The notes under the pieces: generated by a model | Database searches by the model: none | What the model was told of the DNA's origin: nothing | The model's input: only the letters and a program-made list of their open reading frames with translations | Position numbers and translations under genes: made by a program | Source: Bacteroidota bacterium | Lineage (GTDB): Bacteria > Bacteroidota > Bacteroidia > UBA7662 > JAYUJN01 | DNA: 64,000 nucleotides | NCBI GenBank assembly: GCA_043765195.1 | Contig: JAYUJN010000016.1 | Coordinates: forward strand, 17,761 to 81,760 | Direction: 5' to 3' | In this document: positions 3,001 to 33,281 of the stretch, in pieces | Layout: the number at the start of each line of letters is the position of its first letter | Numbering within the stretch: position 1 is the first letter of the stretch

Positions 3001-6000
3001 TTTACCTCCACTGGTTGTGCAGCAATGTCTATTGGTATTACTACCACTGGACCCGATGGCGTTAGGCAAGATGTACTGTTCATACCAGCACCAGCAGGTA
3101 CAGCAGCACCTTGGCAAATGGTATAATTAGTCATAGCAGGTGCCACAGGCGCAGTATTTATGGTTACTTGCACCGATTTTATAATAAAACAACCACTTGC
3201 AGCATCTTCCGACCTAATGTAGTAAGTACCGCCTACTGGAACTTGCGCAGGATTGGATACGGGATTTGCCGTAGCAGCCGCATCTATCCAGTAAGTAAGT
3301 GTAGTTCCAGCAGTGCTACCAGCCGTTACAGCAGGTGCAGTTAGGTTTACAGTAGCAGGCGTACATACCGCAGCAGGTGCAGTAGTTGTGAGCATTGGTA
3401 CTGGGTTTACAGTTACCGTTACTGCTGTACGTGTAGTACTTACGCAGGCACTTGAGTAGCCAGTGGCTTCGGTTTCTGCGTAGTATGTAGTAGTAGCCGT
3501 AGGCACGGTAGTCAGTGAATATACTTCGCTATTGCTTTGTAGCAATGTACCGCCTGTGGCAGCATCGTACCAGTTAATTTGCTTTCCAGCACCAGGAGCA
3601 TCTACTGCCACAGCAGGTGGCACATTAGAGCCAGCGCAAATACTTGCGCCCGAAGCACCCGTTGGTGCGGCTGGTGGTGTACAAGTTGCAGCACAGTTTA
3701 CATTGCTTAGGGTTACCGTAGCATCTGTAAAGCAAGTTGCAGAACTAAATACACGTACTGTGTAGGTTTGTGTGGTAGCAGGGTTAGCCAAAGTACTTGC
3801 TATCATGCCGCCAGTTGGTATGGCAGTAGCAGTAGCAGGTATAGCCGTAGCAGCATCAAAAGTGCCACCCACTGAGTACTGATAGGTATTTCCAGCCGCA
3901 AAGCCAGATAGCGTTATTTTACCATCGCTGTTCGCAGTAAGACCAGTACAAGTAACCGCCGTAGTACCAGCTGTGTATGCAGGCGGTGCAGTTATGGTTA
4001 CAGTTACGGGTTTTATATCCGTACAGCCCGATGGTGTAGTTGCTTTTATGTAATAAGTACCACCTACTGTAATAGCAGTTTGTGTGCCAGCACTTGCAGG
4101 TATCGGCGTAGTGCCAGCGGCATCTGCCCAATAGCTAAATGTAGCACCTGTGGGTAGCGTAGTACCAGCAGTTACTGCGGCTGCGGTTAAGTCAGCAGAA
4201 GTACCACAAGCAGTTATCGCATTGGTAACTACCACAGGGGTGGGCGCTACTATAAAATCTACTGCTGTTCTTGGTCCGGGGCAACCACCTGTTTCGCAAC
4301 TTGCGTATAGCGTGGTAGTACCTGGTGTGCTGGTGCTGGTTATGCCAGAGCCTGTTACACCTACTGGATTAAATGGTGTTCCGCTTCCAAATGATGTTCC
4401 GCCAGTAGCGGCAGCGTACCATTTTATATCGGCTGGGTCGTTGTAGGTAAGGGTTATCGTACCCGCATTTGGTCCAAGAGGGAATATTGCTTCATCAGCA
4501 GCATTGTCATCGAAATTATCCCAATACACAAAATCTAAGGTAGAAGTTACAGGTGTAAGACCCGCAGCAGCCGTAAATGTTTGGTTGTACGTAAATGGCG
4601 ATGTAGCATTACTCAAAGCGCCAATACCAGAAGCGGCTGCACCTGTGAGGGCATTTGCTAAACCGATGCGCATATCCACTTGCCATGAGCCACCGAGCAC
4701 CGTAATGCCTGGTATGTTTATGTTAATACCGCTAAGTGTAGTACCTGCTGGCAAGCTCGCCAAAGAAACACTGGCAAACACGTTGCCTGGTGCTGCGTTT
4801 ACCTCCGTAGGTTGGGCTACTATGTTCAGCGGTAATACTACTTGTCGGGTACAACTGGCTGCACGCACGCCACCGCCCGTAGGCACGGGTGCGTTTTGGC
4901 AAATGGTATAACTGGTTACCGTAGGTGCTGTGCCAGGCGCAGTTATGGTTACGGTTACAGGTGATATAGCAGTACAACCAGCGGTTGATGTTACTTTTAT
5001 GTAGTAAGTACCAGCAGTAGCCGCCGTAGGCGTAGCATATACCGTAGTAGCTGCTGCGGTAGTAAAGTAAGCCAATATGCCGCCTTGTAGGTTAGAGCCT
5101 GCGGTTACTGCCGCTGCTGTAATGTCCACGGTAGCTGGGCTACAAACTGGCGCAGGGTTCGTTATGCTTAATGTAGGTAGTGGCGCACGGGTAAGCGTTA
5201 CGGCTGTACGTGTGGTGCTTACGCAAGCTGGGCTATAACCCGTGGCTTGTGTTTCGGCATAATACGTAGTAGTTACGCTTGGTAGCGGCGAAGGTGCGAA
5301 GGTATTGGTGGCAGTAGCCAGTGCAATACCGCCTGTGCTGCTCTGATACCAATTGGTTACAAAGCCTGTACCAGGTGCATCTACCGCCAAAGGAGCAGCG
5401 AGGGTGTTAGCACCTACGCATATACTTTGGTTTACTGGATTGGTAGGTGCTGCTGGATTAACGCACGCAGCCGCACAGTTTACTACTGCTTGGGTTACGG
5501 TAACGTCTATAAAACAGCCAGCGCCACTTGCAGAAGTTATTCTTATGGTATATGGCTGAGATGCACTTGGGTTTGCCAAGTTATTTACAATCACGCCGCC
5601 AGTTGGTACGGCAGCAGCCGTGGCTGGCACCGCACTTGCAGCATCAAAGGTAGAACCCGTAGAATATTGATAGAAATCGGTAGCACCAAAGCCACTCAAT
5701 GTAATTGTTCCATCGCTGTTGGCTACTGGACCAGAGCAAGTTACATCTGTCAATGAAGCTGTAACCACTGGGGCAGCGGCTTTTACGGTTATGGTAACTG
5801 GCGCACCAGCACTTTTACACGTAGCAGCTATTTGGCATACGCCGTAATAAGTATAAGTACCCGCCGCCAAACTTGCGGTGGTAAACGAAACACCCGTACC
5901 GAGTACTGTGGTGAGTGCGGCATTACTATACCAAGTAAGCGTACCCGTAGTACAAGCTGTACCTGTAAGGTTTACTGTACCTGCACCGCAACGCTGTACG

Positions 6001-27405: not shown

Positions 27406-29811
27406 CTAAAACTTATAACTGTAACCGAAGCGCAACACCTGCGTTTCGTAATAATCGCTGCTGGTATAAGAAAAACCACGCCCGACAACCGTTTTTTTCA
27501 AAACCATGGTATTTAGTAAATCCGTGGCATTAAAAAACAGCTCGCCCTTGCCAGCCTGCACCACCTTTTTCAAGCCCAAATCCAACGAAAAACGCTGCGC
27601 CACCACGCCCTGCGGGCTAATATCGGGCGCATAATACACCGCCGAAAGTTGCCCCTGCACCTTGCCAGCAAAATAAAAGGTATTGTTTAGCTTCACATTG
27701 CCCGAAAATATTTTTTGTTGCGCCGCACTAAAAACCTGCGGCACAGGGTATTTGTTCTCCACCGAAAAAGCATTTATTTGGTTGCGGTACGCATTCAGGT
27801 TCAGGCTAAACCCGTACATTTTAGATGGCTCTTGCGCCCAAACCATTTCCACGCCCGTGTTGTAGCTCTTGCCCGCATTCTGAAAAACGGCATAAATCAA
27901 ATTGCTGCCTGGCGCAATGCTCGAAATTCGGGTAATCGTACCCTGCGAAAACTTGTGGTAAAACGCCGCAAAAAAACTGCCCTTGTCCCCACTTTTTTTG
28001 TACCCAAGCTCCACATTGTTCGTAAACTGCGGTCGGAGCGCAGGGTTGCCCACCTTTATTATTTCGGCATCGTCGTACTTCGGAAAAATCCGAATGTCCA
28101 CCTCGTTCGGTCTGTCCACACGCCTGTTGTAAAAAAACGACACCTTATTTTCCTCATTTAGCTTGTAAGCCAGCCGCACATTCGGGAATGGTTGCGTGTA
28201 ATTGTAGCCATCGCTCTTGTAGGTTGGGTGGTTTGGGGCTACCTCATAGTTTATTTTCACGTACTCCATGCGCAAACCCAGCTCCGCCTCCCAGTTTTTG
28301 GTTTCAAACACATAGTTGCCATACGCCGCTGGTATCCACTCGCTGTACGTAGCCTTGCCGCCCGCCGTGCTGTCTATCACCGAGTTTGCGCCAGGCATAA
28401 ACTGCATATTGGTGGGTATGTCCCTTTTGCGCAGCTTCACGCCCGTTTCCAGCCTCCCAAACTTCAAGGGCTTTACGTAATCCAGCGTAAAATCGTACAC
28501 TTGCTCGTCCGATAGCAGCTTAAACGCATCTTTACCAAGCGAATTGGGCAAAATATTGTCGTAAAAATACTTCTCGTTTTCTCTATGAAATGTATAATTA
28601 AGCCCAACATTCAACACATTGCCCGCACCCTTAAACTTGTGCTGATAGCTGGTGCTGCCCATAAAAGTCGTTTTTAGCTCGTCCTCCAAAAACTGCCATA
28701 GCCTTATTCTTTCGGTCAATCCGCCATAAAAAAACGGCTGGTCGCCCCTATCTATAATTTTTTCGCTGCCCCACAAACCCGAAACCGTAATGCTATTTTG
28801 GGCATCGAACACATAATCCACACCCGATTTTAGGGTCGTAAAATGGGTGTTTCTGTTCCTTTTCAGTTGCTGGTTTATTACATCGCCGTTGTCGTAGGTT
28901 CTTTTTACAAACTCGTTTTTGTTCAGGGTTTCGGTGTATAAATAATCGCCCTGAAAAAAAACATTGAGCTTTCCCCTCAAATAATTCAGCGAAATGTTGG
29001 GGTTTAGCTTTGGCGTTCTGGCGTATTGGGGCGTGATGGTAGGCAAATTTGGCTGGCGCACCCAAAGCGCACCTGCGCCCGTGGTCATGCCTATTTTGCC
29101 GTTAAAACCCTGCTTTTTGTTCGTTTTATACACAATATTTATAATTCCTGCGTTGCCATTGGCATCGTACTTCGCCGACGGATTGTTTATAATCTCTATT
29201 TTTTCTATGGCGGAGGCGGGTATGTTGTCCAAGCCCGACTGGCTGCCAAAGCCCGTGAGCGCCGTTTGCTTGCCGTCTATCAGCACCACTACTTTGTCGC
29301 TGCCACGGAGCTGCACCTTGCCACTTTGTACCGCCACGCCAGGCAGGTTTTGCATGGCTTGCAGCACCGAGCCGCCCGTTTGGCTAATATTATCTTTGAG
29401 CAAAAAAGTTTTTTTGTCCATTTTTTCGCTTACTTCGTCTTGCTTTGCCACGATTAAAAGCTCACCGAGCGTGTTTTTTTGCACCAGCTCCGTGCTACCC
29501 AAATTCAAAAAAGGTGAGAGCTTGCCCACAAACAACGCCTGCATTTGGGTTTTGTAGCCCACATAAGAAAACTGCAATACATATCTCCCAGGTTTTACAT
29601 TTGCCAAGCTAAAATAACCATCTTCGGCTGTGGCGGTTCCGCCCACAAAACTGCTGTCTTTCTCCGTTTTTAGCACCACATTGGCAAAAGCGATGGCTGT
29701 TTTGCCCACCGATTCTTTTACATTGCCCGAAATGGTAACGGTATTTTGCGCATTTAACCCCAAAAAAAGGAGGAGAAATACGGCTATAAGCAAGTTTGTT
29801 TTGTGATTCAT
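27406..29811 (-). CDS. TonB-dependent receptor with an N-terminal CarboxypepD_reg-like domain
   Basis: 801 aa: signal peptide, a TISGNVKE...ANVVL carboxypeptidase-regulatory-like domain, a plug, and a beta-barrel ending RFGYSYKF with a terminal aromatic residue. Confidence 0.9.
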   Translation of the reverse strand: MNHKTNLLIAVFLLLFLGLNAQNTVTISGNVKESVGKTAIAFANVVLKTEKDSSFVGGTATAEDGYFSLANVKPGRYVLQFSYVGYKTQMQALFVGKLSPFLNLGSTELVQKNTLGELLIVAKQDEVSEKMDKKTFLLKDNISQTGGSVLQAMQNLPGVAVQSGKVQLRGSDKVVVLIDGKQTALTGFGSQSGLDNIPASAIEKIEIINNPSAKYDANGNAGIINIVYKTNKKQGFNGKIGMTTGAGALWVRQPNLPTITPQYARTPKLNPNISLNYLRGKLNVFFQGDYLYTETLNKNEFVKRTYDNGDVINQQLKRNRNTHFTTLKSGVDYVFDAQNSITVSGLWGSEKIIDRGDQPFFYGGLTERIRLWQFLEDELKTTFMGSTSYQHKFKGAGNVLNVGLNYTFHRENEKYFYDNILPNSLGKDAFKLLSDEQVYDFTLDYVKPLKFGRLETGVKLRKRDIPTNMQFMPGANSVIDSTAGGKATYSEWIPAAYGNYVFETKNWEAELGLRMEYVKINYEVAPNHPTYKSDGYNYTQPFPNVRLAYKLNEENKVSFFYNRRVDRPNEVDIRIFPKYDDAEIIKVGNPALRPQFTNNVELGYKKSGDKGSFFAAFYHKFSQGTITRISSIAPGSNLIYAVFQNAGKSYNTGVEMVWAQEPSKMYGFSLNLNAYRNQINAFSVENKYPVPQVFSAAQQKIFSGNVKLNNTFYFAGKVQGQLSAVYYAPDISPQGVVAQRFSLDLGLKKVVQAGKGELFFNATDLLNTMVLKKTVVGRGFSYTSSDYYETQVLRFGYSYKF

Positions 29812-29817
29812 AATTGT

Positions 29818-29912
29818 TTTCTACACCACAAAGGTACTAAATTTATGCCCAAAATCCTTTATTCAAAACCCAAATGATGTGAACCTGAACAATTTTATAG
29901 ACCACGCCAAGC
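29818..29912. repeat. Left copy of the duplicated host intergenic sequence flanking the R-M cassette. It holds the receptor promoter plus a dead copy of the deoC 5' end.
   Basis: 29818-29854 is identical to 32397-32433. 29847-29912 matches 32604-32670 at roughly 85-90% by eye. The left copy reads ATGTGAACCTGAACAATTTTATAGACCACGCCAAGC where the true deoC start reads ATGAACCTAAACAATTTTATAGACCACACCAAGC; the 2-nt insertion creates ATG TGA. Confidence 0.85.
29829..29836 (-). promoter_or_regulatory. -7 box TACCTTTG of the TonB-dependent receptor gene
   Basis: The plus strand reads caaaggta, 18 nt upstream of the ATG at 29811. It lies within the 36-37 bp block that is duplicated at 32397-32433. Confidence 0.55.
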
Positions 29913-30005
29913 ACTGTGCAAAATTTTAGTTGTGTATTGTTGTCAATTAGGATTTATTTTACTTTTTTTTATCCATTTTTTTGCATATTTAGATTTTTAT
30001 TCGCA

Positions 30006-30017
30006 TATTTGCAAATA
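30006..30017. promoter_or_regulatory. Perfect 12-bp palindrome TATTTGCAAATA, 14 nt upstream of the HTH gene; candidate operator
   Basis: Read directly from the sequence. GCATATTT also occurs twice as a direct repeat (29983-29990 and 30003-30010), 20 bp apart. Confidence 0.4.
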
Positions 30018-30031
30018 AATTAAGATGCAAT

Positions 30032-30337
30032 ATGTCTGAATGGAATAACAAAGTCAAACGAATGCTCAAATCGGAGTTGATAAAAAGAGGTTTGTCCACC
30101 GAAGATTTAACCCTTTTATTGAATGAAAATGGTTGCTCAGAAACCAAGTCGAGCGTTGATAGTAAAATTAGTCGGGGTACTTTTAGTGCATCTTTTTTTA
30201 TGCAATCGCTGTTTGTGATTGGCTGCACAAAAATTGAGATAGAAGAATATCGTTCTACCTTTTTAGTTTCTGAACCTTCAAATTTGATGGTTGCCGAACA
30301 CAATGTTGAATATAAAACCGTTGAAAATGAACACTAA
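30032..30337 (+). CDS. Small helix-turn-helix-like protein (resembles DUF6471-type proteins); putative regulator of the R-M cassette
   Basis: 101 aa. MSEWNNKVKRMLKSELIKRGLSTEDLTLLLNENG...KISRGTFSASFFMQSLFVIG is a pattern I recall from small HTH proteins near mobile or R-M genes (not verified). Its stop overlaps the methyltransferase start by 11 nt. Confidence 0.5.
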   Translation: MSEWNNKVKRMLKSELIKRGLSTEDLTLLLNENGCSETKSSVDSKISRGTFSASFFMQSLFVIGCTKIEIEEYRSTFLVSEPSNLMVAEHNVEYKTVENEH

Positions 30338-31697
30338 ATTGAAATTCATAGATTTATTTGCGGGTCTTGGCGGCATTCGTTTGGGTTTTGAGCAGGCTTG
30401 CAAAGAGCGTGGCATCGAAACTGAATGTGTTTTAACTTCTGAAATCAAGCCTTATGCGGTTCAAACGCTCAAACACAACCATCACCACGAAAATTTTGTT
30501 GGCGATATTTTTCAAGTCAAAAACGAGGATATTCCGCCCTTTGACTTCTTGTTCGGCGGTTTTCCTTGCCAGCCATTTAGTGCAAGCGGCAAAAGAAATG
30601 GCTTTGCGGACACACGAGGAACTTTGTTTTTTGAAATAGAACGCATTATCAAATACCACCAGCCACAGGGTTTTATCCTCGAAAATGTGGAGGGTTTGGT
30701 CAAACACGATTTGGAAAATAAACACGATGCGATAGGTAGAACGCTACAAACGATTTTGCATAAACTTGAAAAAGAACTGGATTATCAAGTTTCTTGGAAA
30801 GTTTTAGACAGTGTTCATTTTGGCGTTCCACAATCTCGAAAACGGGTTTTTATTGTAGGTACAAAAAACGAAAAAGTATCGTTAGAAAATTTTGAGCCAA
30901 CTTACAAAGTGCTAAATGACGTTTTAGAAAAAGGAAAACCAACGATGAATACGGCGTTTACTAAAAAATTGCTTTCGTATTTTACGGTTGAGGAGCTTTA
31001 CGGAAAATCCATCAAAGATAAACGTGGAGGCGAAAATAACATTCATAGTTGGGATATTGGCATTAAGGGCGAATGCTCAAAAGACCAAATTAATTTGTTA
31101 AATCAGTTGTTTAGAGAACGCAGAAAAAAGCAATGGGCGAGTGAAATCGGCATTGATTGGATGGACGGAATGCCGCTGACTTTAAGCCAAATTCAGTCGT
31201 TTTTTCCTACGAATAATTTGTTTGAAAACATCGATGTAAAAATACTTTTAGACGATTTGGTAGAAAAAGGATACATAAAATTTGAACACCCAAAAAAGTT
31301 GGTTAATGAAATTACCGAAAATGGTATAATTACCGCTCGTATTTATGACGAAACCAAACCCAAGGGCTACAATATTGTAACTGGAAATTTAAGTTTTGAG
31401 GTCAATAAAATACTAAATCCGTTTGAAATTGCACCTACTTTGGTAGCAACTGATATGGTAAAAATTGTTGTACCCGATGGTAAAGGAATTAGAAAACTAA
31501 CGATAAGAGAAGGATTGCGCATTTTTGGTTATCCCGAAAACTACGATATTCCCGTAAAAGAGAGTTTAGCCTTTGATTTACTGGGCAATACAGTGGTTGT
31601 TTCTGTTATAAAAGCCGTTGCAGAAAGGATTTTAGATGCAATTCAGATGCCAGAATACGAAGTTTTAGAAACCGAAAACACAGGAATTACAGCGTAA
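30327..31697 (+). CDS. DNA (cytosine-5)-methyltransferase
   Basis: Motif I FIDLFAGLGG, motif IV GGFPCQPFS, motif VI ILENVEGL, motif VIII QSRKRVFIVG, motif IX-like RKLTIREGLRIFGYPENY and motif X LLGNTVVVSV. The start is set at the ATG at 30327 (MNTKLKF); alternatives are the ATG at 30303 or the track's TTG at 30291. Confidence 0.93.
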   Translation: MNTKLKFIDLFAGLGGIRLGFEQACKERGIETECVLTSEIKPYAVQTLKHNHHHENFVGDIFQVKNEDIPPFDFLFGGFPCQPFSASGKRNGFADTRGTLFFEIERIIKYHQPQGFILENVEGLVKHDLENKHDAIGRTLQTILHKLEKELDYQVSWKVLDSVHFGVPQSRKRVFIVGTKNEKVSLENFEPTYKVLNDVLEKGKPTMNTAFTKKLLSYFTVEELYGKSIKDKRGGENNIHSWDIGIKGECSKDQINLLNQLFRERRKKQWASEIGIDWMDGMPLTLSQIQSFFPTNNLFENIDVKILLDDLVEKGYIKFEHPKKLVNEITENGIITARIYDETKPKGYNIVTGNLSFEVNKILNPFEIAPTLVATDMVKIVVPDGKGIRKLTIREGLRIFGYPENYDIPVKESLAFDLLGNTVVVSVIKAVAERILDAIQMPEYEVLETENTGITA

Positions 31698-31709
31698 TTC
31701 CTGTGTTTT
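31675..31709. terminator. Bidirectional intrinsic terminator: a 16-bp perfect inverted repeat with a 3-nt loop, flanked by an A-run and a T-run
   Basis: AAAACACAGGAATTAC-AGC-GTAATTCCTGTGTTTT(T). It spans both convergent stop codons (methyltransferase TAA at 31695-31697; endonuclease TAA complement at 31687-31689). Confidence 0.75.
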
Positions 31710-32376
31710 TCAAGTATTGAGATTTTACTTTTTCCAACCAATTTTCGCTGTAGCTGTCTGTGCTATGCGCATATTTTTCGAGTGTTTCAGCAATGGCGTT
31801 CAAAAAACTTAGCTTGTCTGCGAATGGTTTGTTTTTGGGGCTTTTAGCATACCACTTTACTGGTCTTAAATTATAGGGCTGACTGTTTTTAGTTTGCACA
31901 TACACAGGATTTGCGCCCGAAGTTCCTGCCATTTCCCAAACTTTCATAAGCCATAAATTGTCCACACTCAAAACAGAATCAACCATTTTGTAACCAAAAA
32001 TCAAATAATCTGCGTCAAGTCTTTCAGGTTTGAGAAGAAGCGATTTGTTGTAAGAATCAAAATTTGCGATGTCAAATGCTGGCGTAGCGTCTGCGTTGAA
32101 GGTTTTGATTTCTAAAAAGCCCTTTTTGTCATTTTCGTCAAGTAAAAAATCTGGAAACTCTTGGGTATTTGTCGGTTGCCTAAAATAGAAATTCTTTTGT
32201 TTCAGCCATTCGCCAAGCCATTCTTGCAACAGGTCGCCAATTGCGTCTTTTCCGTTGTATTTTGCAGAAATGCCACCAAGCCTAATTTCAATACTCCCGA
32301 TTTGTTCTTTTATTTTGAACTCGTTCAGCAATAAATCATAAATTTGGTATGCCGTAACTTTTATCTTTTCTGCCAT
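31687..32376 (-). CDS. Type II restriction endonuclease (PD-ExK fold)
   Basis: 229 aa, convergent with and overlapping the C5-methyltransferase by 11 nt. The catalytic-type motif is QEFPDFLL...KGFLEIKTF (PD...ExK). It is AT-rich relative to its neighbours. Specificity cannot be determined from sequence alone. Confidence 0.75.
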   Translation of the reverse strand: MAEKIKVTAYQIYDLLLNEFKIKEQIGSIEIRLGGISAKYNGKDAIGDLLQEWLGEWLKQKNFYFRQPTNTQEFPDFLLDENDKKGFLEIKTFNADATPAFDIANFDSYNKSLLLKPERLDADYLIFGYKMVDSVLSVDNLWLMKVWEMAGTSGANPVYVQTKNSQPYNLRPVKWYAKSPKNKPFADKLSFLNAIAETLEKYAHSTDSYSENWLEKVKSQYLKNTGITL

Positions 32377-32396
32377 TCGTTTGGTGGTGTTTGATA

Positions 32397-32433
32397 TTTC
32401 TACACCACAAAGGTACTAAATTTATGCCCAAAA
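32397..32433. repeat. Right copy, part 1: a duplicated TonB-receptor promoter block now placed upstream of the restriction endonuclease gene
   Basis: 37 nt identical to 29818-29854 (TTTCTACACCACAAAGGTACTAAATTTATGCCCAAAA). Confidence 0.85.
32408..32415 (-). promoter_or_regulatory. Duplicated -7 box TACCTTTG, 32 nt upstream of the restriction endonuclease ATG
   Basis: The plus strand reads caaaggta inside the duplicated block. The endonuclease start is at 32376. Confidence 0.5.
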
Positions 32434-32603
32434 CGGTTATACATTGGTATTTTGGCGCATTGTTTGCAACCAACCCAAAAAAAATTTGGTTAGGTAATCA
32501 CTCATTTGCCCCATTGCGCCAAATCGCCGAGCAGTTAGCCGTTTATTATTTCATTTGGGCGTTTTCATTACCCAAAACATAAAAATAGCCAAACCGAGGC
32601 ATT

Positions 32604-32670
32604 GCCCAAAAATCCATTATTCAAAACACAAAAAATATGAACCTAAACAATTTTATAGACCACACCAAGC
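32604..32670. repeat. Right copy, part 2: the native deoC leader and 5' coding end, matching 29847-29912
   Basis: GCCCAAAAATCCATTATTCAAAACACAAAAAATATGAACCTAAACAATTTTATAGACCACACCAAGC aligned against the left copy. Confidence 0.8.
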
Positions 32671-33281
32671 TGGGCGCACACCTCACCCGAGCAGAAGTAG
32701 CGCAACTCTGCCAAGAAGCCGCCGAAAATAACTTTGCGGCGGTGTGCATACCGCCCTATTTTGTGGCGCAATGCCATAAATTGCTGGCACAAACAACCGT
32801 AAAAACCTGCACCGTGGTGGGTTTTCCGCTGGGTTATAGCACCATAGCCGCCAAAATAACAGAAATAAAAAAAGCCTTAGACGACGGCGCACAAGAAATA
32901 GATGCCGTAATTAATTTGGCTGCTTTGGCGAACGGCGACTGGCGCACGCTAACCAACGAGCTGGAAAGCATGACGAATACCTGCCATTTTCAAGGAAAAA
33001 TCATCAAAATTATCATAGAAACCGCTTATTTGACCCAAGCAGACTATGCGCCGCTCACCGAAATTTGCATAAAAACGGGCGTGGATTTTGTAAAAACCTC
33101 CACTGGTTTTGCGCCCACGGGTGCCGATGTAGCCTCGGTGCGCCAGCTCAGGCTTTTGCTACCCGAAACCATCAAACTAAAAGCCTCGGGCGGCATCAAA
33201 ACCAAAGACCAAGCCCAGAGGCTCATAGCAGCAGGTGCCAGCCGCATAGGCACTTCTTGCGGGCTACAACTAATAGGCTAA
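32637..33281 (+). CDS. deoC: Deoxyribose-phosphate aldolase
   Basis: 214 aa, DeoC class I aldolase pattern (VCIPPYFV, DFVKTSTGF, LKASGGIKT). Confidence 0.9.
   Translation: MNLNNFIDHTKLGAHLTRAEVAQLCQEAAENNFAAVCIPPYFVAQCHKLLAQTTVKTCTVVGFPLGYSTIAAKITEIKKALDDGAQEIDAVINLAALANGDWRTLTNELESMTNTCHFQGKIIKIIIETAYLTQADYAPLTEICIKTGVDFVKTSTGFAPTGADVASVRQLRLLLPETIKLKASGGIKTKDQAQRLIAAGASRIGTSCGLQLIG

Follow-up and report, generated by a model that had tools for sequence, protein, structure and literature searches.

The present analysis concerns a 64,000-nucleotide stretch of DNA from an uncultured member of Bacteroidota (GenBank assembly GCA_043765195.1, contig JAYUJN010000016.1, positions 17,761 to 81,760 of the forward strand), hereafter referred to as the window. 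Here, a restriction–modification (R-M) cassette separates the gene of a TonB-dependent receptor from deoC, the gene of deoxyribose-phosphate aldolase. We conclude that the cassette was probably copied from a locus next to fabH and inserted at the deoC site without the help of a recombinase, with a long duplication of the target, and that the endonuclease gene is now most likely transcribed from the duplicated receptor promoter. All positions given without a contig name are those of the window.

The inserted cassette (2,481 bp, positions 29916-32396) has host genes on both sides, the receptor gene on the left (27406-29811, minus strand; Pfam domains OMP_b-brl_3, Plug and CarboxypepD_reg) and an intact deoC on the right (32637-33281, plus strand; PF01791). 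A first-pass annotation, made from the letters alone, had proposed that the cassette is bracketed by two copies of the receptor/deoC intergenic sequence, that it is richer in AT than its flanks and that it lacks an integrase or transposase. These proposals hold. A computed repeat search of the window aligned 29818-29854 with 32397-32433 at 37/37 positions and 29848-29912 with 32606-32670 at 57/65 positions (88%). The 37-mer occurs in the window exactly twice, while 100 shuffles give an expectation of 0.00. The guanine plus cytosine (G+C) content is 36.2% for the cassette versus 45.5% for the window. The 2.48-kb insert has only three genes, and among its open reading frames (ORFs) there is no integrase, transposase or other recombinase gene; an Rfam scan of the window returned no RNA gene. 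At least five independent metagenome contigs, derived from different samples, show the same structure, and we therefore rejected the possibility of an assembly artefact.

The corresponding empty site could also be found. The search with the DeoC sequence returned one cluster at 98% identity, a single relative at 71% and the remainder at 55% or less, which indicates that the window organism is sparsely sampled. The 98% variant is encoded on two contigs, L087 and L088. In both of them the cassette is absent and the order is receptor gene, a 246-bp spacer and deoC, with a single copy of the target, just as the first-pass annotation had predicted for a site without the insertion (receptor, promoter, deoC). 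Over 7.8 kb and 2.7 kb of flanking DNA, the two contigs are 96.9% identical to the window. Their spacer, with its one copy of the target, aligns colinearly with window positions 32397-32636, a stretch that includes the 172 bp separating both parts of the right-hand repeat. The latter segment had been taken for unrelated sequence, but it is the native intergenic spacer. Since it is present in the empty site, the right-hand copy is the native one and the duplicated target is 274 bp long (32397-32670) instead of the roughly 95 bp originally proposed. This full-length copy, which differs from the single copy of L087 and L088 at 18/274 positions, consists of a promoter block, P-right (32397-32433), the native spacer (32434-32602) and the deoC leader with the start of the gene (32603-32670).

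The left copy is contiguous, as had been claimed. However, it is not the original duplicated unit but a deletion derivative, equal to the 274-bp target minus 178-179 bp. It is made up of the left copy of the 37-nt promoter block, P-left (29818-29854), which serves the receptor gene, and a decayed copy of the deoC leader together with the first 34 nt of deoC (29846-29912). The deletion ends in a 9-nt direct repeat, TGCCCAAAA, which occurs in the native copy at 32425-32433 and 32603-32611 and in the left copy at 29846-29854, the point of fusion to P-left. End points of this kind are the signature of slippage, and the left copy would have lost its 178-179 bp through slippage between the two TGCCCAAAA repeats some time after the insertion. 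Within the 65-nt leader part, there are seven changes private to the left copy, one private to the native copy and four private to the sister lineage represented by L087 and L088. The left copy is the decaying one. The decay of the deoC fragment, already noted in the first-pass annotation, extends to its start codon (ATG to GTG). Presumably, the fragment had by then become useless.

A closely similar cassette is found at another site, upstream of fabH and between it and a hypothetical gene (L090:5974-8461 and L091:1223-3710), with a DNA identity of 97.4% over window positions 29916-32404. A third contig, L100, has the same fabH junction, and its cassette part (L100:1-371) is 98.65% identical to the window copy over 371 nt (29916-30286). 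The flanks of L100 differ from those of L090 and L091 by 3.0%, while the window differs from L087 by 3.1%. In addition, L100 co-occurs in one sample with L002, a contig with the window-type deoC, and L091 co-occurs with the empty-site contig L088. The overlap of L002 and L100 is exactly 141 nt, the k of the assembler, as expected from an assembly fork between two copies of the cassette. Based on the matching levels of divergence and the co-occurrence in samples, we infer that the cassette resides at the fabH site in both lineages and that in the window lineage there is a second copy at deoC. Two direct repeats in colinear order flank the fabH-site copy itself, matching exactly over 15 nt and 13 nt (seen in 0/5000 resamples). 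We also considered whether the 20 nt preceding the endonuclease ATG and the TATATTTG box in L090 are copies of the fabH promoter, but the alignment of 13 further contexts revealed that this leader is native to the cassette. Homologs of the endonuclease are 80-90% identical in many Bacteroidota, whereas DeoC identity falls to 71% and then to 55% or less. The endonuclease is thus far more conserved than its housekeeping neighbors, and this means that the cassette is horizontally mobile.

The comparison with the fabH-site copy also defines the junctions, placing the cassette ends no more than a few nucleotides from the boundaries of the repeats. Homology to that copy starts at 29916 and ends at 32404. 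At the left junction, three nucleotides (ACT, 29913-29915) between the end of the target at 29912 and the start of the homology belong to neither partner and represent a filler. At the right junction, the last 8 nt of the cassette homology (TTTCTACA, 32397-32404) coincide with the first 8 nt of the duplicated block. This microhomology forms the end of what remains of the cassette's own endonuclease leader (32377-32404, minus strand), which is homologous to the leaders of L090 and of the canonical cassettes in L093 and L117. Taken together, the microhomology, the filler, the duplication of 274 bp and the missing recombinase gene favor illegitimate joining or replication template switching over site-specific recombination or transposition. 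In such an event, about 2.48 kb would have been copied from the cassette already residing at the fabH locus of the same lineage. The copy would then have been joined to the 246-bp spacer, with its divergent promoters, at two points 274 bp apart, leaving the sequence of 32397-32670 on both sides. With the duplication, both host genes keep an intact start and promoter. The outcome resembles the products of microhomology-mediated break-induced replication or fork stalling and template switching (MMBIR/FoSTeS), in that a short segment is duplicated in tandem and foreign DNA occupies the novel junction, with microhomology at one join and filler at the other; this likeness is drawn from the product alone.

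Two further observations concern the right junction. Within the 274-bp target the lineages differ at 18 positions, 3 of which cluster in the 8 nt overlapping the cassette end, where TTTCTACA stands against TTTTTATG in the sister lineage (L087:7761-7768). The TTTCTACA states are common to both window copies (32397-32404 and 29818-29825), possibly owing to gene conversion from the junction copy into the receptor leader or to microhomology that existed beforehand. The second observation is that the contig of a third, closer strain (L003, 98.9% identical) begins at the equivalent of window position 32405, inside the promoter block and one base past the cassette homology. This suggests that in that sample either the population is mixed, with the site occupied in some members and empty in others, or there is a fork.

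To describe the cassette family, we collected 25 more loci by a metagenome scan and aligned the cassette ends from 13 contexts. In most contexts the canonical unit measures 2.52-2.535 kb. The part conserved across contexts extends from GTTAGGTGCAATTTT, about 95 nt before the endonuclease ATG, to an inverted copy, AAAACTGCACCTAAC, about 88 nt before the ATG of the gene at the other end, which encodes a DUF6471 protein. The canonical ends thus constitute terminal inverted repeats of 10-15 bp (for example, L103:1319-3848, L121:235-2756 and L096:5907-8441). They may be transposon-like termini or, alternatively, an operator that both inward-facing promoters share and that is located symmetrically upstream of them. 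Transposition of such a unit, with a transposase acting in trans, would make use of these repeats, and a compensatory change in L121 that preserves their complementarity is in line with it. As an explanation of the window insertion it is nevertheless highly improbable. In the window, the DUF6471-side end persists as a diverged remnant (29928-29938), and the endonuclease-side repeat is absent, with none at 32397-32440. The junctions lie off the repeat ends, no transposase gene is nearby, and a duplication of 274 bp far exceeds any made by a transposase. Moreover, none of the nine contexts checked displays a short target-site duplication beside the inverted repeats. Canonical members of the family share inverted-repeat ends of 10-15 bp with the transposon-like R-M units of Furuta et al. 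(2010), but differ from them in having neither a short target duplication nor a transposase, and the window copy has in addition lost one end. An integron gene cassette was considered as well, since the ends contain the short words GTTAGGT/ACCTAAC, which fit the integron core consensus GTTRRRY/RYYYAAC. It was rejected, as no attC-like structure was found, Rfam returned nothing for four canonical loci and the flanks are ordinary host genes.

In Bacteroidota, the -7 promoter box has the consensus TAnnTTTG, known from Bacteroides and Flavobacterium. An element of this type, TACCTTTG, is located in the duplicated block at 32408-32415 (minus strand) and represents the predicted promoter box of the endonuclease gene. 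Relative to the endonuclease ATG, this box has its T at -39 and the G at -32, in agreement with the earlier report of an exact copy of the receptor box at -32. The other copy (29829-29836, minus strand) has its T at -25 from the receptor ATG, and this -25 box is present in both lineages. Throughout the window, 14 TAnnTTTG boxes are found 20-60 nt upstream of the 51 predicted genes versus 1.8 expected (about 8-fold), which indicates a working promoter element in this organism. A scan for sigma-70 promoters and terminators was uninformative for this phylum. Canonical cassettes have about 95 nt of conserved upstream DNA with an endonuclease promoter of their own, AAATTTGTACATTTGCGAC, the box of which (TACATTTG) is at -39. 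The window copy retains 20-28 nt of cassette leader before the endonuclease ATG and has lost this canonical promoter; the receptor-derived TACCTTTG copy stands at the same -39. Given only 20-28 nt of cassette DNA, any promoter of the endonuclease gene must lie in duplicated host DNA. The gene has inherited the full native upstream region of the receptor, and the receptor gene keeps just the 37-nt block. We are somewhat inclined to think that the endonuclease is transcribed from the duplicated receptor promoter, as the position of the box suggests.

The recognition site of the endonuclease can be predicted from its family. NgoBV and NlaIV are specific for GGNNCC (REBASE), and we predict the same site for the window enzyme. 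In 61.5 kb of host DNA there are 49 GGNNCC sites, with an observed-to-expected ratio (O/E) of 0.25-0.34. Among the 256 XYnnZW patterns, GGNNCC is the second most depleted, nearly all of its 16 variants are depleted, and the cassette has 0 such sites. This depletion fits a prolonged exposure to an active enzyme with the specificity of the family, although the older copy at the fabH site could account for it on its own. Other patterns are also rare in host DNA (outside 29913-32396): CTNNAG has an O/E of 0.19-0.22 and TCNNGA of about 0.35-0.57, while words containing GGCC are nearly absent. These patterns hint at other restriction systems in the history of the lineage.

Several points weigh against the proposed reconstruction. 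The first of them is the uneven identity of the two copies, with 0/37 differences in the block compared to 8/65 in the leader. Such unevenness requires that both promoter copies were under selection, that gene conversion took place or that chance produced it (estimated at about 0.03-0.05). The contrast between a 37/37 block and an 88% leader would fit selection on both copies, and gene conversion or chance might explain it too. It is also what one would expect from a crossover inside the block with a donor whose leader had diverged. The alternative is a Campbell-type integration, in which a circular intermediate with the cassette and a pre-fused junction of block and leader (P-L') recombined with the chromosomal 37-nt block. 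It would directly yield a contiguous left copy and a complete right copy. However, 37 bp is very short for homologous recombination, and some prior event must already have provided the cassette ends with the block and the deoC leader, so that the duplication would still have to be explained. The deletion ends exactly in the 9-nt TGCCCAAAA repeat, for which slippage is the simpler account, and the left leader shares four states with the right copy of the window against the sister lineage, meaning that the donor was not distant. We regard Campbell-type integration as a quite unlikely origin of the structure.

The second point is the direction of the event, gain or loss. A receptor–deoC adjacency was not found outside the two lineages: the 71% DeoC relative (L089) is not syntenic, and a GTDB scan with the receptor protein gave best hits of 66-73% in many families, with deoC never adjacent. 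A precise loss between the repeats could yield the empty site. The deoC site might, then, have been occupied already in the common ancestor, and the sister lineage might have lost the cassette by recombination between the 37-nt blocks, which would regenerate exactly the empty site observed. The copies at deoC and fabH (97.4-98.7% identical) diverge about as much as the lineages do, which speaks for such a loss. With 7 changes in 65 nt, the decay of the left copy is comparable in extent to the lineage divergence and fits either order of events. Nevertheless, even with the polarity reversed, the original insertion with duplication is still required; the timing changes, not the nature of the event. 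On balance, we find such an ancestral occupancy unlikely and a gain by insertion in the window lineage the better explanation.

The remaining points concern the source of the cassette and the use of the promoter. Two cassette copies were not seen on any one contig, and their presence in the same genome follows from divergence and co-occurrence. Outgroup polarization of the three cassette copies over 371 nt gave 2, 1 and 1 informative sites. As for the promoter, a -33 TTTG was not found 19-21 nt from the -7 box, the nearest TTTG being 13 nt upstream, and the endonuclease gene could be silent or expressed in some other way. The promoter copy would in that case be a passive by-product of the duplication. 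The missing -33 element speaks for it, and so does the frequency of TAnnTTTG over the whole window, where the motif is only mildly over-represented (111 versus 85 +/- 10). Against it stand the short stretch of cassette DNA before the ATG, which leaves duplicated DNA as the only place for a promoter, the -39 position shared with canonical cassettes and the 8-fold enrichment of the motif before genes. All three ORFs of the cassette, including that of the endonuclease, are intact in every contig, and the strong depletion of GGNNCC argues in the same direction, subject to the contribution of the fabH-site copy. Thus, a passive by-product seems to us possible but doubtful, and expression from the duplicated receptor promoter is the reading we favor.

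The three cassette genes are as follows. The first (30032-30337, plus strand) encodes a small DUF6471 protein (PF20075, E=2e-21), a predicted five-helix helix-turn-helix (HTH) protein with a fold possibly similar to that of controller proteins (C-proteins). The second (30327-31697, plus strand) encodes a C5-cytosine DNA methyltransferase of 456 amino acids (PF00145, E=1e-80; TIGR00675, E=2e-98). The two genes probably form an operon because they overlap by 11 nt. The third gene (31687-32376, minus strand) encodes a Type II restriction endonuclease of the NgoBV family with 229 amino acids, matched over its full length by PF09564 (RE_NgoBV, residues 6-226, E=7e-47). At the overlapping 3' ends of the convergent methyltransferase and endonuclease genes there is a perfect 16-bp hairpin with a 3-nt loop (31675-31709; an inverted repeat with 100% complementarity), likely to act as a bidirectional terminator. 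The full-length RE_NgoBV match, the C5 methyltransferase partner and the depletion of GGNNCC in the host relate the cassette to the NgoBV/NlaIV Type IIP R-M systems, with the specificity in our case being a predicted one. What distinguishes the Bacteroidota family is the additional DUF6471 HTH gene upstream of the methyltransferase gene.

Structure comparison suggests a resemblance of the DUF6471 protein to C-proteins. Its AlphaFold model, computed from the single sequence, has an overall pLDDT (predicted local distance difference test) of 71.7, with values of 72-92 for residues 1-75. The best PDB matches of the model are C.Esp1396I, C.BclI and C.EcoT38IS, with target template-modeling scores (TM-scores) of at most 0.79 and weak Foldseek E-values of at least 0.14. 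A sequence search of PDB and an NCBIfam search gave no hits for either the DUF6471 protein or the endonuclease. The R-M systems of these C-proteins would have in common with the cassette a small five-helix HTH protein, by modeled structure and without similarity at the sequence level. They differ in gene arrangement. A classic C gene precedes the endonuclease gene and is co-transcribed with it, with a C-box, while the DUF6471 gene lies ahead of the methyltransferase gene, overlaps it and converges with the endonuclease gene. In the region upstream of the DUF6471 gene (29983-30016), GCATATTT occurs twice at a spacing of 20 nt, and there is a 10-bp palindrome, ATTTGCAAAT, at 30007-30016. A block in this region, TTTGCAAATATG, is shared by all relatives of the cassette and may serve as an operator or promoter.

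Among the host genes, deoC and the receptor gene differ in their relatives. Proteins of Flavobacterium, Emticicia, Chitinophagaceae and Chryseobacterium match the receptor at 66-73% identity, but there is no synteny. For DeoC, no relative above 71% exists beyond the 98% cluster. The receptor gene may itself have been exchanged horizontally.

Long direct repeats are not a constant companion of the cassette family, as several other canonical units have none. On an unrelated metagenome contig, L109, a direct repeat of about 108 nt (2260-2368 and 4908-5015; 38/40 identical in the first 40 nt) flanks a canonical cassette and is a second candidate for a long target duplication. Another pair of sites is provided by two Chitinophagales contigs with 100% identical flanks, L093 and L094, the latter of which has an extra R-M unit of about 1.97 kb (L094:3932-5906 versus L093:5907). 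The extra unit codes for an ApaLI-like endonuclease, an N6/N4 methyltransferase and an HTH_3 protein, and its first bases, GTTACCTGCAAG, resemble the inverted repeat of the NgoBV-type cassette. It sits exactly at the first three bases (GTT) of that inverted repeat, with a 3-bp overlap. With an overlap of only 3 bp, long duplication is clearly not universal for R-M insertions in these genomes.

A broader and speculative interpretation, which we hold to be rather unlikely at present, is that the NgoBV-type family is a recombinase-less selfish unit, spreading widely in Bacteroidota as a module of about 2.53 kb with inverted repeats at its ends, that copies deprived of one end and of their own endonuclease promoter still copy themselves within a genome by microhomology or template-switch insertion and that long duplication provides the endonuclease with a host promoter. 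The repeat of about 108 nt in L109 and the short colinear repeats at the fabH site are hints in this direction. If it were true, long target duplication would be a route to a host promoter rather than a mere scar, and it would put restriction under the regulation of a host gene, here that of the TonB-dependent receptor.

Insertions of the kind described here have precedents. Nobusato et al. (2000, Gene 259:99) reportedly recognized a class of R-M 'insertion with long target duplication'. The same class was treated by Furuta, Abe and Kobayashi (2010, NAR 38:2428; PMC2853133), where the listed taxa are Proteobacteria, Cyanobacteria, Actinobacteria and Thermus, but not Bacteroidetes. According to that study, in which promoters are not discussed, such repeats often span translation starts, sparing the target gene. 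The locus in the window agrees with this class in every feature used there to delimit it. Homologs of both R and M are inside the insert, which is shorter than 20 kb and has no integrase, transposase or prophage genes; the flanking repeats exceed 30 bp and a related genome has a single-copy empty site; the repeat is neither an att site (such as a tRNA gene) nor a multi-copy sequence, and the junctions consist of microhomology and filler without a common core. Here, too, the repeat spans a translation start, leaving the target gene intact, and the G+C content of the insert is below that of the host. The window differs from the known cases in its uncultured Bacteroidota host, in the secondary internal deletion in one copy of the repeat, in a donor that is apparently a second copy in the same genome and in the replacement of the endonuclease's own promoter by a host one. 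A literature search combining Bacteroidetes, target duplication and R-M found no paper. The insertion is a known mechanism extended to a phylum for which we found no published example; it is not a new mechanism and overturns no current view.

What the locus provides is a clean pair of occupied and empty sites for an R-M insertion with long target duplication. Its junctions, resolved to the nucleotide (8-nt microhomology and 3-nt filler), point to illegitimate joining or template switching and away from a recombinase. The duplication may also have had regulatory consequences: the host genes keep their promoters, and the endonuclease gene has exchanged its own promoter for the upstream region of the receptor. 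If the endonuclease is indeed transcribed from there, the locus would exemplify concretely how a restriction gene can be rewired to the regulation of its host.

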